From positions 74,646 through 138,645 of the forward strand of contig JAJPHZ010000022.1 in assembly GCA_021325025.1 (NCBI GenBank): DNA of 64,000 nucleotides, given 5' to 3'. The position numbers were made by a program, and so were the translations under genes. Below are positions 35,135 to 38,873 of the stretch, piece by piece. This stretch comes from Pseudomonadota bacterium (GTDB lineage: Bacteria > Desulfobacterota > Binatia > Binatales > Binataceae). Each line of letters begins with the position of its first letter. Within the stretch, counting starts at the first letter, position 1. Below the pieces are notes generated by a model, which saw nothing but the letters and a program-made list of their open reading frames with translations, was not told the origin of the DNA and ran no database searches.

Positions 35135-35887
35135 ATGGCAGGTCGACTGTCGGGCAAGGTGGCATTGATTACGGGCGCCGCCGCGGGAATGGGCGCGGCC
35201 TTTGTGCGCGTATTCGCGGCGGAGGGCGCCCGGGTGGCCGCCGCCGACATCCAGGACGAACTGGGCCGCACGGTGGCCGATGAGGTCAATCGCGCCGGCG
35301 GAGAAGCGATTTATGTGCATCTGGATACCAGCCGGGAATCGGACTGGGCCGAAGCCGTGGCGCACACCGTCAAACGCTTCGGCAGGCTGACCACGCTGTG
35401 CAACGTGGCCGGCATTTACCGCACCGAGGGGGTGGAGGCCGAAACGATGGAAGGCTGGCAGCGGCTGATCGCGGTCGATCAGACCGGTGTATGGCTGGGC
35501 ATGAAGGCGGCGGTGCCGCACATGAAGCAGGCCGGCGGCGGCGCAATCGTCAACATCTCATCGGTGGCGGGGCTGTCCGCCCGCCCGATGGCGATTGCCT
35601 ATCACGCCGCCAAGGCCGCCGTTCACCTGATGAGCAAGGTGGCCGCGCTGGAGTACGCCGAACACAACATCCGCGTCAACTCCATTCATCCCGGCTTTAC
35701 CATGACCTCGACCGCCTCTGTGCTGCCCGAGGAGGTCAAAAAGGCGCTGGCCGATCCGGTGCCGATGCGCCGCGCGGCGACGCCCGAAGAGATCGCCTAT
35801 GGCGCCCTATACCTGTGCTCGGACGAAGCTGCCATCGTCACCGGCACCGAGCTGGTAATCGACGGTGGCCTGTCGGCGCGGCATTGA
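35135..35887 (+). CDS. SDR-family oxidoreductase (3-oxoacyl-ACP reductase-like)
   Basis: AGGGAGAG RBS. TGAAAGMG Rossmann motif, NVAG, and the catalytic S...YHAAK. Confidence 0.85.
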   Translation: MAGRLSGKVALITGAAAGMGAAFVRVFAAEGARVAAADIQDELGRTVADEVNRAGGEAIYVHLDTSRESDWAEAVAHTVKRFGRLTTLCNVAGIYRTEGVEAETMEGWQRLIAVDQTGVWLGMKAAVPHMKQAGGGAIVNISSVAGLSARPMAIAYHAAKAAVHLMSKVAALEYAEHNIRVNSIHPGFTMTSTASVLPEEVKKALADPVPMRRAATPEEIAYGALYLCSDEAAIVTGTELVIDGGLSARH

Positions 35888-36015
35888 GCGGCGTCCTTGC
35901 ATCAGATCAACGCCCCAGCGCGGTCTTGCGAAAGACCGCGCGCGGCGGGTAGGTCCCGAGAGTTGTCCGGTTGCGTGGGGCGGGAGGCGGTGATGGATGA
36001 TCCGGCGAAGAAGCT

Positions 36016-36189
36016 TCAGGACAACTCGACAGTCTGATCGGGTTGCGGTCCCGGAACCATGCCCTCGAGGTCGGGGTCTTTGCCGTCTTCACGCACGCGT
36101 TTCTGACGTTCAGCCGCACGCTCGACGCGCCGTTGTTCCTTTTGTTGTTGCTTCTGTCTGCGCGCACGTTCTCGCTGGCGTTTATCCAT
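36016..36189 (-). CDS. Small highly basic protein of unknown function (57 aa), possibly co-transcribed downstream of the RRM gene
   Basis: On the minus strand a GGAGG RBS sits 6 nt before the ATG. The product (MDKRQRERARRQKQQQKEQRRVERAAERQKRV...) is Arg/Lys/Gln-rich. No homology was recognised. Confidence 0.3.
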   Translation of the reverse strand: MDKRQRERARRQKQQQKEQRRVERAAERQKRVREDGKDPDLEGMVPGPQPDQTVELS

Positions 36190-36335
36190 GCATTTTGCCT
36201 CCGTCAACGGCATTTTCGAGGCTGATGAGAACCGGGCCGTCCGAATTGACGGCCCGGTCCGGCGCTGCTCAAGCGGCGCGCCGGAACCGGCCATCGCGCC
36301 TCAGGGCAAAATACGATCGCGCGCTGGCATCACTT

Positions 36336-36656
36336 TTACCAGCGGTTGCGGCCGCGGCCGGCACCGCCGCCGCTGTTGCGACCACGGTTGCCGGCGCCGA
36401 AGCCCGACTCGCGCGGCTTGGCCTCGTTTACCTTGATGTTGCGGCCCTTGAGTTCGCAATCGTTGAACTGACGAATCGCATCGGCGACTTCTTGCGCGGT
36501 CGCCATTTCGACAAAGCCAAAGCCCTTGGATTGTCCGGAAAACTTATCCGTGATGACCGTGGCGCTTTGCACTTGACCAACTTGCGAGAACAGTTCGTGA
36601 AGGTCGTCGTTGGTGACTGAGTAGGCCAGATTGCCTACGTATAACTTGCTGGGCAT
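36336..36656 (-). CDS. RRM-type glycine-rich RNA-binding protein
   Basis: RNP-2 (LYVGNL) and RNP-1 (KGFGFVEM) motifs. The C-terminal tail is Gly/Arg-rich (GFGAGNRGRNSGGGAGRGRNRW). Confidence 0.9.
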   Translation of the reverse strand: MPSKLYVGNLAYSVTNDDLHELFSQVGQVQSATVITDKFSGQSKGFGFVEMATAQEVADAIRQFNDCELKGRNIKVNEAKPRESGFGAGNRGRNSGGGAGRGRNRW

Positions 36657-37092
36657 TTTGCCCTCCGAGAGTTTGTGCCGGGGCAGCTCCGAACAGAGAA
36701 CCCGAGCTCATTCCCGGGTAGATGTGAAAGGAACGTCCGAACGTTGAGCCTTAACTCTACACCTGCCCGGCTCCTAAAGATACCCCCGTCCTGACCTGAT
36801 CGCTGATTTTTTCGAGCGGGCCGCGATTTTTGTTCGTCCCCTGGATGTACTTCTGCCGCCGCAAAGAATAAGGTGGAGGCTGCTCGACGTCGGATGCGGT
36901 CCTTCCCCGACCACCACGCGTCGCCTGCTGGGGACAATCCGAACCGCTTGAGGCAAGGAGTTCGGTAATGCCCCGCGAGCGCGTTGGAAATCTCGCCAAT
37001 CACAAGCGCCACCTGCGCATTGCTCGCATGCCATTACCAGAAAACATCAACGCAGCGTTCGATCGGTATAATCGATAAAGGCTTGTAAAAGC

Positions 37093-37875
37093 GTGATAGA
37101 AAGCATTCGCAACCAGATGTATCGCGTGTACCTCGATTTCCTTGAGACCGCCGAGAAGAAGCGCCACTGGAACATTTTCAACGATGTGCCGTGGGAGCGG
37201 CTTGAAACCTCAAAAGCGACCGAAAACTGCGCGCAGTGCGTGGAGATCTTCTGTGCCGAGGAGCTTTATGTCCCCGATTACAGCTCCAATGGGCTGGAGC
37301 TGGTACGTTCGCGATTCGGCATGGCCTGGTTCCAGACCTGCTGGGCCTTCGAGGAGTCCAGGCATGGACTGGTTTTCCGCGAGTACCTGACCCGCTCGGG
37401 CCTGCGGTCGGAAGCCCACGTCGAGGCCCTGGAGGCGAGCGTATGTGCCAAGGCCTGGAAGCTGCCGTTCCAAACGCCGCGCCAGATGGCGTGCTACGGA
37501 GCCTTGCAGGAGGGCGCGACCTATGTTGCCTACAGGCGTCAGCGCGACCAGGCGCGCAGCGCGAACGACCGTGTGCTAGAAGCCATCTTCCATCTGGTGG
37601 GCCGGGATGAAGCGGCGCACGGCGGATTTTACCGGGCCATCATCGAGCTGGAACTCGCGCAGGACCGCGCGGCGACAATCGCTGACCTGGCCGAGGTAAT
37701 TTCGAACTTCAAAATGCCCGGCGACGGCCTAATCGCGAACTACCAGCAAAGACTGCGGGCTTGCGGTGCAGGCATAAGTGCTCGCGCATTTGTCGAGCAT
37801 GTGGTGTGGCCGCTTCTGGTCACCCTGCAAATCAGCCGCCAGGAACTCAAAGCAGCCATCAACGCGCGCAGATAA
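37093..37875 (+). CDS. Soluble acyl-ACP desaturase-family di-iron protein (fatty acid desaturase type 2, DesA-like)
   Basis: Two EExxH di-iron motifs (EESRHG and DEAAHG) in a ferritin-like fold. GTG start at 37093 (alternative ATG 37117). Confidence 0.7.
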   Translation: MIESIRNQMYRVYLDFLETAEKKRHWNIFNDVPWERLETSKATENCAQCVEIFCAEELYVPDYSSNGLELVRSRFGMAWFQTCWAFEESRHGLVFREYLTRSGLRSEAHVEALEASVCAKAWKLPFQTPRQMACYGALQEGATYVAYRRQRDQARSANDRVLEAIFHLVGRDEAAHGGFYRAIIELELAQDRAATIADLAEVISNFKMPGDGLIANYQQRLRACGAGISARAFVEHVVWPLLVTLQISRQELKAAINARR

Positions 37876-37988
37876 AAGGCGCGACATGGGCGTGGAGCGC
37901 CGGCACCGATGGAGCCCCCCCTTGATGCGCCCGCCGCCGTTGGTGCGGCATCAGGCCGCGCGCTGCAACACCTTGCCTGGCCGCAAGC

Positions 37989-38873
37989 TCACTTGGCGAT
38001 GTCCAGTTTGAAGACCTCGATCGCGTTGTCCCGCAGGTAGCGGCGCTTGACTTCGTCCTTGAGCGGCACCGCCCATCCTTCCTGCGAGCAGCGCTGCATC
38101 GGCAGAATCGGATAGTCGCTGGACCACAGGATTTTGTTCGCGCCGCGCGTGTTGGCCAGATTCCACAGCTCCTGCGGCACGTGCTTGGGGGCCCAGCCCG
38201 AGGTGATCATGTAGAAGTTGGGAAACTTCTGCAGCAGCGCGACAGTTTCCAGATGCCAGGGGTGGCCGACGTGGGTGCCGACCACGGTCAATTCCGGAAA
38301 GGCCAGCAGCACCTCGTCCAGGTTCATCGGCTGCTGCAATCTGGCCTGGCGCAGCGGACCCGGCACCCCGCAATTGATCTTGACCGTCATGCCGAGCTCC
38401 ACGCACTTGGCATAAACCGGGAAGTAGCAGGCGTGATTGGCGGGCAGGCCAACCAGCGCCGGCATCATCCAAATCGACCGGAAACCATACTCCTTGTAGG
38501 CACGCTCGACCTGCCGCACGGCACGCATCATCCCGGTCGGATCGATCGCGGCGCATCCGTAAAGCCGCCCCGGATAGCGCTTGATGATGTCGGCCACTTC
38601 CTTGCAGGCGGCGTTGAAGGTCTCGTCGGTGATGCGCTGGCCGACGGCATAGGGACCGGCGGGCAGCTCGGGTTGCCCGGTCGCGGTCAGAATCGCGGCC
38701 TCGATCGAGCATTCATCCATGTCGGCCACCATCTGTTCGACCGTCGCCCCTTCCATCAGCGCCTTGGAATTGCGGAACCAGCGCGCGATGTTAGGGTCCT
38801 GTGAAGGATTGGGCGCCTTGGGCGGAAGTCCGATGAAGGGGTCGATCAGTTTGAATTGCTGCGCCATTGCCAA
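37989..38873 (-). CDS. Amidohydrolase-2 family metal-dependent hydrolase/decarboxylase (ACMSD-like)
   Basis: TIM-barrel amidohydrolase-2 features (SIWMMP...HACYFP...VVGTHVGHPW...WSSDYP). Confidence 0.7.
   Translation of the reverse strand: MAMAQQFKLIDPFIGLPPKAPNPSQDPNIARWFRNSKALMEGATVEQMVADMDECSIEAAILTATGQPELPAGPYAVGQRITDETFNAACKEVADIIKRYPGRLYGCAAIDPTGMMRAVRQVERAYKEYGFRSIWMMPALVGLPANHACYFPVYAKCVELGMTVKINCGVPGPLRQARLQQPMNLDEVLLAFPELTVVGTHVGHPWHLETVALLQKFPNFYMITSGWAPKHVPQELWNLANTRGANKILWSSDYPILPMQRCSQEGWAVPLKDEVKRRYLRDNAIEVFKLDIAK

Follow-up and report, generated by a model that had tools for sequence, protein, structure and literature searches.

The 5′ untranslated region (UTR) of Escherichia coli cspA contains a cold box and acts as an mRNA thermosensor, and Csp proteins mediate antitermination. 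In Anabaena, the gene for a small basic protein, S21, follows rbp in the rbpA1-rpsU cluster, and the 5′ UTR matters for cold regulation. The cold-induced desaturases of cyanobacteria are membrane acyl-lipid enzymes rather than soluble enzymes of the acyl-acyl carrier protein (acyl-ACP) type. The crhR helicase gene, the desaturase gene desB, and rbp1, which encodes an RNA recognition motif (RRM) protein, are cold-induced in Synechocystis (PMC3264485), as is an acyl-ACP desaturase gene in Mycobacterium smegmatis (PMC10454040). RRM genes of Bacteroides are also induced by cold, carry 5′ UTRs of 122-155 nt, and undergo negative auto- and cross-regulation (PMC13370968). RRM proteins are newly recognized as cold-shock-type chaperones, and the role of the long 5′ UTRs of bacterial RRM genes is an open question (PMC13370968). 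The locus described here lies in a 64,000-nt stretch of contig JAJPHZ010000022.1 (hereafter the window, meaning the whole stretch analyzed), which comes from a metagenome-assembled genome (MAG) of an uncultured soil bacterium of the Binataceae (Binatia). It contains an RRM gene, RRM-A, divergent from a desaturase-like gene, DES. We consider it probable, with moderate confidence, that this locus is a reduced form of a Binataceae gene cluster in which DES has come under the promoter and leader of a second RRM paralogue, RRM-B, and that the leaders serve as stress-control sites.

Within the window, RRM-A (36336-36656, minus strand) encodes a protein of 106 aa, and DES (37093-37875, plus strand) begins with GTG and encodes a soluble di-iron protein of 260 aa with the motifs EESRHG and DEAAHG. 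A third gene, SMALL (36016-36189, minus strand), is an open reading frame (ORF) of 57 codons with a GGAGG ribosome-binding site. All three genes had been noted in a preliminary description of this DNA and are real, and their divergence across a long gap was confirmed, with the length corrected from 435 to 436 bp (36657-37092). To judge from its sequence, this gap is not one leader but two back-to-back promoter/leader modules. It contains the RRM-A promoter and leader, a non-conserved spacer, and then the promoter, 5′ UTR, and ribosome-binding site of RRM-B.

The comparison set consisted of 80 species-level loci encoding DES relatives, in which neighboring genes were located by tblastn in flanks of up to 6 kb on each side of DES. 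The exact DES protein and its nearest homologues were found in records labelled Candidatus Binataceae. The recurrent layout places SMALL and RRM-A on the minus strand, divergent from RRM-B on the plus strand, with RRM-B upstream of DES. The promoters of these relatives stand back to back, and RRM-A and RRM-B each have their own conserved 5′ UTR of ~90 nt. RRM-B encodes a protein of about 92 aa that starts with MPKVYVGNLASSVTS, has the RNP-1 motif CRGFGFVEM, and is without a glycine-rich tail. In the two closest relatives, whose DES proteins are 82-83% identical to that of the window, SMALL, RRM-A, RRM-B, a gene for a 92-93-aa protein, and DES are all present. On one metagenomic contig (L083; 2189-2556 and 3713-4012), divergent leader pairs occur in tandem, with two RRM-A and two RRM-B leaders; this implies a duplication of the whole bidirectional module there.

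Between 36843 and about 37000, the plus strand of the window can be aligned column for column to the promoter, 5′ UTR, and first codons of RRM-B. The relic promoter and 5′ UTR (36843-36967, plus strand) comprise a -35 element TGTACT (36846-36851), a 17-nt spacer, a -10 element TAAGGT (36869-36874), the stem arms UCGGAU (36890-36895) and AUCCGA (36937-36942), and a ribosome-binding site AAGGAG (36955-36960). An nhmmer profile that drew on non-coding DNA alone, namely the 135 nt preceding RRM-B in 15 other loci, matches the window at 36843-36955 with E = 4.3e-20 and 67 bits. Elsewhere, this profile is always found 1-9 nt before RRM-B coding sequence. Among about 170 loci, the RRM-B leader occurs without RRM-B coding sequence in the window only, an RRM-B pseudogene in L014 aside. 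The closing helix of the RRM-B leader has one covarying pair, which is UA in 8 sequences and CG in 7.

Downstream of the relic leader lies a 36-codon relic ORF (36968-37078, plus strand), recognized by its likeness to the RRM-B N-terminus and by synteny. It starts MPRERVGNLAN, compared with the RRM-B consensus MPKVYVGNLAS, and consists of the first ~11 RRM-B codons joined to sequence that reads through the former stop region of the 92-aa gene, ending in a TAA stop 14 nt before the DES GTG. A profile of RRM-B coding sequence gave E of about 1 at 36982-37026, which is not significant by itself, and so the case for an RRM-B relic is built on the non-coding profile and synteny. At the other end, window positions 37045-37092 are homologous to the spacer between the stop of the 92-aa gene and DES in L161. 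The RRM-B ATG and the DES start are 125 nt apart in the window but 653 nt apart in L161 and 715 in L163. The window has thus undergone a deletion, with an estimated net loss of about 530-590 bp, that took away the 92-aa gene and all of RRM-B beyond approximately codon 11. When spliced alignment was run with cheap gaps, spurious small blocks appeared in 37000-37045, and the deletion junction is therefore approximate. The same arrangement is present in five other assemblies (two from ENA, two from NCBI, and one from Logan), and therefore it is not an assembly artefact. Lesions of RRM genes also occur in relatives: RRM-B is pseudogenized in L014 (2790-3059; 38% identity, with stops) and frameshifted in L080 (5267-5492), and RRM-A is apparently frameshifted in L008 (4706-4965). 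Together with the window deletion, these lesions suggest repeated loss of RRM paralogues, or else sequence errors in MAGs.

A deletion of this kind could have left the RRM-B leader as dead DNA that has not yet decayed, with DES using a new promoter near the junction, at a TATAAT hexamer (37067-37072, plus strand), and RRM co-regulation lost. This is the main rival to continued use of the relic leader, and we regard it as unlikely. The hexamer arose by substitution from CATGAC/CATACC in the window lineage only, as compensation could look, and substitutions are dense in codons 3-5 of the relic ORF. However, the relic -35 and -10 elements are intact, as are the UTR stem, the ribosome-binding site, and the ATG; in addition, the relic UTR is 77-86% identical to that of relatives, compared with 53-66% at third codon positions, taken as synonymous sites. 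Transcription from the TATAAT would, moreover, leave DES with just ~14 nt of leader, in which the ribosome-binding site is a weak AAGG. The hexamer had been proposed as the DES promoter, about 28 nt upstream of the GTG and flanked by an inverted repeat. It is present, but its end is separated from the GTG by 20 nt, it lacks a -35 partner at 16-18 nt, and a sigma-70 scan of 35800-38100 found no promoter-like site. The homologous position reads CATGAC, CATACC, or CGCGAC in L161, L163, and L003 (CATGAC/CATACC in the closest relatives), and the inverted repeat has arms of only 5 bp and is not conserved. The failed scan is weak evidence against a TATAAT promoter because the conserved promoters of this lineage fit the E. 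coli consensus poorly, a point that favors the dead-DNA explanation; the RRM-A promoter likewise falls under the threshold of an E. coli consensus scan.

The putative RRM-A promoter (36754-36782, minus strand) consists of a -35 element TATCTT (36782-36777), a 17-nt spacer, and a -10 element TAGAGT (36759-36754). The RRM-A upstream regions of 15 aligned loci share a T-rich -35 (TATCTT or TTTACT) and a -10 of the form TAnnnT at fixed spacing. Because these hexamers are conserved, the RRM-A transcription start can be placed provisionally ~90 nt from the ATG, and conservation ends upstream of this presumed start. The resulting 5′ UTR of ~90 nt (36657-36747, minus strand) is 84-95% identical to those of relatives, compared with 53-66% at third codon positions. 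These observations bear on the model of the preliminary description, in which the whole 435 bp formed a long thermosensing RRM 5′ UTR shared with the desaturase gene, itself served by its own TATAAT promoter and an operator-like inverted repeat. Divergent genes, a long gap, and a perfect TATAAT are indeed present. However, beyond the ~90-nt RRM-A 5′ UTR, the gap holds the relic RRM-B leader, so that 36843-36967 is the plus-strand leader of another gene, and the 344-nt antisense region said to form the thermosensor folds no more stably than shuffled sequence (z = +0.35). That model is thus largely refuted and, in our estimation, scarcely credible.

From 5′ to 3′, the RRM-A leader consists of a 5′ box ACGUUCGGACG, a pyrimidine tract GUUCCUUUCAC, a hairpin termed P2, the segment GUUCGGAGCU, the motif CCCGGCA, and a ribosome-binding site GGAGGG. 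A covariance model of this leader, R1, which takes in 12 coding nucleotides, has 30 instances in about 1.3 Mb of loci, all of them directly 5′ of RRM-A-type genes in Binataceae-like loci; no instance was found at the RRM genes of loci L095-L160, apparently from other lineages. Over 118 nt, the leader folds with z = -2.3. Hairpin P2 (36700-36719, minus strand) has the form ACCCGGG-AAUGAG-CUCGGGU and is followed by the U-rich tract UUCUCUGUU. In the 30 sequences, 90% of the cells are paired, and compensatory changes mark 7 of the 8 pairs. A terminator scan reports 36719-36700 plus UCUCUGUU, and the consensus of the P2 tail is UUUUCUGUU. With a GC-rich hairpin and a U-tract inside a 5′ UTR, P2 looks like a terminator. 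RNAalifold predicts that the pyrimidine tract and the 5′ box of the leader (UUCCUUU and CGYUCGG) pair with the ribosome-binding site and AUG, in sequences that are nearly invariant. An alternative, extended stem, GUUCC...GGAGC, was predicted in at least 18 of 26 sequences, and no compensatory support for it was found. The long-range helices sequestering the ribosome-binding site and the three-tier P2 stem are thermodynamic predictions that lack compensatory changes, and they are not claimed here.

Conserved non-coding blocks might act as DNA rather than as RNA, that is, as operators through which a transcription factor controls both divergent promoters. A similar box does occur a few nucleotides after each predicted start, GCUCAACGUUCGGACG in RRM-A and GCUCGACGUCGGAUG in RRM-B, and the hexamer TTCGGA is locally enriched, with four minus-strand copies within 36240-36943. 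Most of the conserved leader sequence is, moreover, without covariation. On the other hand, P2 pairing is kept through the compensatory changes described above, the RRM-B leader has the UA/CG covariation in its closing stem, and conservation reaches as far as the ribosome-binding site, which fits an mRNA leader. We therefore hold control by shared operators to be very unlikely. The TTCGGA copies are at 36240, 36688, 36736, and 36938 (minus strand), spanning ~700 nt in which the window-wide frequency gives a rough expectation of about 0.2. They fall in conserved sites, namely the RRM-A 5′ box, the middle of the RRM-A leader, the loop of a 3′ hairpin, and the RRM-B leader stem; UCGGAU is also present on the plus strand at 36890-36895. 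TTCGGA, or the leader box common to both genes, could be a common protein-binding element.

Neither the RRM-A nor the RRM-B leader matches any Rfam family, including the RNA thermometer and cold-shock families cspA, ROSE, and fourU. A search of the 64-kb window gave no match at the gathering score, and a permissive search of 35850-37250 gave five weak matches, all within 36230-36408 and far below the gathering score, with none in the gap. The two leader motifs are thus conserved, absent from Rfam, and each strictly tied to one RRM paralogue, and they are apparently undescribed. Tentatively, and as a possibility that we rate below an even chance, they may represent an undescribed class of cis-regulatory mRNA leaders by which RRM-type RNA chaperones would sense RNA-structure or cold stress and regulate their own genes in return, with this control extended in Binataceae to an operon of chaperone, helicase, and two desaturase genes and here controlling DES directly.

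That operon starts with RRM-B and finishes with DES. The genes that may stand between them, all optional, encode, in this order, a Cys protein of 92 aa, an RNA helicase of the DEAD-box class (PF00270 and PF00271), and a membrane fatty-acid desaturase (PF00487). The number of genes inserted between RRM-B and DES ranges from zero to three, and RRM-B always comes first and DES always last despite the variable content between them. The full five-gene form is present in L001, L002, L014, and L034; intermediate forms occur in L005, L007, L022, L053, L004, L031, L043, and L161-L163; and RRM-B directly precedes DES in L003, L011, L021, L030, and L068. Set beside these forms, the window is the end point of a reduction series, with a leader followed directly by DES. 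The combination of helicase, membrane desaturase, and DES was also seen beside a divergent RRM gene. An RRM gene lies in the flank of 22 of the 80 DES loci, and in 17 of the 80 RRM-B is upstream on the same strand. The proposal of a conserved RRM-desaturase pairing therefore stands in part: RRM genes do recur beside DES, but the conserved partner is RRM-B, deleted here, and not the divergent RRM-A.

The ~92-aa protein of this operon (L001 3286-3564, L004 2566-2835, L161 3677-3955, L163 1362-1643) is encoded directly after RRM-B in 14 loci among those examined and is absent from the window. Its motif reads …THDF.VKMLDWS..RGSRLAY.CR.CGR.F…W..D..GR.L…RWL…CPR…DDEDRKRLS, and it had no match in Pfam. 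The CxxC…C…C pattern points to a small protein resembling a zinc ribbon.

The DES protein matches Pfam FA_desaturase_2 (PF03405) with 72.7 bits (gathering threshold 22.7). Its di-iron ligands, E56/E57, E88, H91, E140, E173, and H176, are invariant in 22 homologues, and as a series (E, EXXH, E, EXXH) they align with the EENRHG, QERAT, and DEKRH motifs of PDB 2uw1. Sequence profiles match DES in the PDB to plant acyl-ACP desaturases (E = 1.6e-8) and to M. tuberculosis DesA2 (E = 2.3e-7). An AlphaFold2 model of the protein has a pLDDT of 88.4, and acyl-ACP desaturases make up all of its top 20 PDB matches, at query-normalized TM scores of 0.67-0.79; the best fold matches have TM scores of 0.72-0.79 at 16-19% identity. 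By fold and sequence, DES thus belongs to the acyl-ACP desaturase family, as a short and distant member. It shares the di-iron four-helix-bundle fold and all six ligands with the soluble enzymes (plant delta-9, -6, and -4 desaturases and M. tuberculosis DesA1/DesA2). Unlike the plant enzymes, which have 325-363 aa, DES has 260 aa, close to the 275 aa of DesA2. DesA2 itself is, to our knowledge, without proven activity. Many Binataceae genomes carry two DES paralogues (L016/L072, L024/L066, L015/L069, L018/L074, L054/L070, L013/L022, L023/L036, L002/L055), and in at least L013/L022, L023/L036, and L002/L055 only one copy is inside the RRM/helicase/desaturase operon. Functional divergence between the two copies is possible.

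Conserved gene order need not imply common control. The cluster could have been inherited without shared regulation or a cold function, with the RRM proteins acting as general chaperones or regulators, DES as a housekeeping lipid enzyme or another di-iron oxidase, and the leaders in ordinary autoregulation. Three observations are in line with this explanation and weigh against the reduced, stress-controlled cluster that we prefer. No RRM gene lies within the flank in 58 of the 80 DES loci; many of these RRM-less loci exist because several genomes hold a second DES copy elsewhere. In simple folding from 5 to 45 °C, the unpaired probability of the ribosome-binding site changed little, with no clear switch. 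DES, as a distant family member, covers only the core of the PF03405 profile (positions 100-236 of 325). Other points also tell against the preferred cluster. The 80 loci share phylogeny, so that their counts are not independent events. Covariation backs one helix per leader, whereas the sequence in which the ribosome-binding site would be paired hardly varies. A recent deletion, and not continued use, could explain why the relic leader is conserved, and the transcription starts, the co-transcription of DES with the relic leader, and the temperature response are all inferred. Nonetheless, clustering by inheritance alone seems distinctly unlikely to us. Whatever genes intervene, RRM-B invariably precedes DES in the same orientation, and the inserted DEAD-box helicase and membrane desaturase make a non-random functional set. 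RRM is also the commonest DES neighbor, every other neighbor family being found in at most 16 loci, and experimental precedent ties each of these gene classes to cold. Other conserved DES neighbors, considered as clues to function, were set aside as clade-specific (response regulator, histidine kinase, carboxypeptidase, methyltransferase) or as spurious high-GC ORFs.

In the reduced cluster as we picture it, DES would still be transcribed from the RRM-B promoter through the RRM-B leader, and translation of the relic ORF may be coupled to that of DES. RRM-A and SMALL would be expressed from the RRM-A promoter through the leader with the terminator-like P2, and pyrimidine-rich boxes in this leader could pair with the ribosome-binding site. 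Both leaders would most likely be sites of post-transcriptional feedback or stress control, probably responsive to low temperature, by analogy with Bacteroides rbp and E. coli cspA. The operon as a whole would serve adaptation of RNA structure and membrane fluidity. The low-temperature role is inferred through guilt by association with cold-induced gene classes. The suggestion that the RRM gene and DES form a cold module accordingly gains comparative support, since the gene set matches cold-inducible classes and relatives add a helicase and a membrane desaturase in the same operon.

The RRM-A protein has a single RRM followed by a Gly/Arg-rich C-terminus. It matches Pfam RRM_1 (PF00076) with 76.5 bits (cut-off 20.7) and E = 1.5e-21 and narrowly passes the cut-off of 100 for NCBIfam NF058537 (Rbp_regulator), with 104.2 bits. 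RNP-2, LYVGNL, occupies residues 5-10, and RNP-1, KGFGFVEM, residues 44-51. RRM-A orthologues in Binataceae loci are 72-91% identical. SMALL, whose GGAGG sits 8 nt 5′ of its ATG, encodes a highly basic protein of 57 aa (MDKRQRER...VPGPQP...) and probably shares a transcript with RRM-A, which precedes it. In every related locus where SMALL was seen (L003, L004, L007, L008, L014, L021, L022, L034, L043, L161-L163), it follows RRM-A, on the same strand except in L043. About 105 homologues, each of ~57 aa, are all labelled 'hypothetical', and the few with organism names are from Binataceae. A role as an analogue of ribosomal protein S21 was rejected because SMALL had no match in Pfam or NCBIfam.

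GC-rich stem-loops lie between RRM-A and SMALL (36232-36286, minus strand), located by a 7-locus alignment and by reading of the sequence. The first, CCGGCGC…GCGCCGG (36257-36286, minus strand), stands between the RRM-A stop and the SMALL start and is kept in 7 loci, with invariant arms GGCGC...GCGCCGGA in the alignment. The loop of the second (36232-36257, minus strand) contains UUCGGA. A proper U-tract follows neither of them, and the stem-loop at 36257-36286 may therefore be an intercistronic stabilizer or processing element rather than a terminator. Overlapping the SMALL start is a three-codon mini-ORF, AUG CAU GGA UAA (36190-36197, minus strand), out of frame and within AAAAUGCAUGGAUAAAC; the sequence AUGCAUGGAUAAAC is kept in most orthologues.

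Compared with described systems, the Binataceae locus is closest in kind to cold-shock-type RNA-chaperone genes with regulatory leaders. Like Bacteroides RbpA/B/C, the RRM proteins are small, have a single RRM, and occur as several paralogues, and the genes of both groups have 5′ UTRs of roughly 100-150 nt (PMC13370968). The two groups differ in phylum, and no sequence or Rfam relationship was found between the Bacteroides leaders and those of Binataceae. No operon of rbp genes with a helicase or desaturases has been reported in Bacteroides, and regulation in Binataceae is predicted only. The cyanobacterial set of rbpA1/rbp1, crhR, and desB likewise combines a glycine-rich RRM protein, a DEAD-box helicase, and a membrane desaturase (PMC3264485). 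Those genes are dispersed, whereas the Binataceae genes are physically linked in one operon; moreover, DES is of the soluble type and not an acyl-lipid desaturase, and SMALL is not S21. With E. coli cspA the locus shares a conserved leader on an RNA-chaperone gene, a 5′ box common to paralogues, and a leader hairpin with a U-tract that an RNA chaperone could melt. In contrast, Csp proteins have an OB-fold rather than an RRM, the RNA sequences are unrelated and give no Rfam match here, and the Binataceae leader folds showed no clear switch between 5 and 45 °C.

The unusual part of this locus is the physical linkage to helicase and desaturase genes: the Binataceae operon joins RRM, helicase, and desaturase genes that model organisms link by co-regulation only. 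A literature search combining Binatia or Binatota with desaturase or RNA-binding protein found nothing, and no regulatory RNA from this phylum turned up. The window offers a natural truncation of the operon, in which the RRM-B leader stands directly before a desaturase-like gene. If the two leaders do form a regulatory class, this would be a natural deletion experiment with a leader acting in cis independently of the adjacent coding sequence. The leaders are testable targets for the study of post-transcriptional stress control in the Binatia, which are abundant in soil and uncultured, and such control would give a physiological context to a short, uncharacterized branch of the acyl-ACP desaturases.

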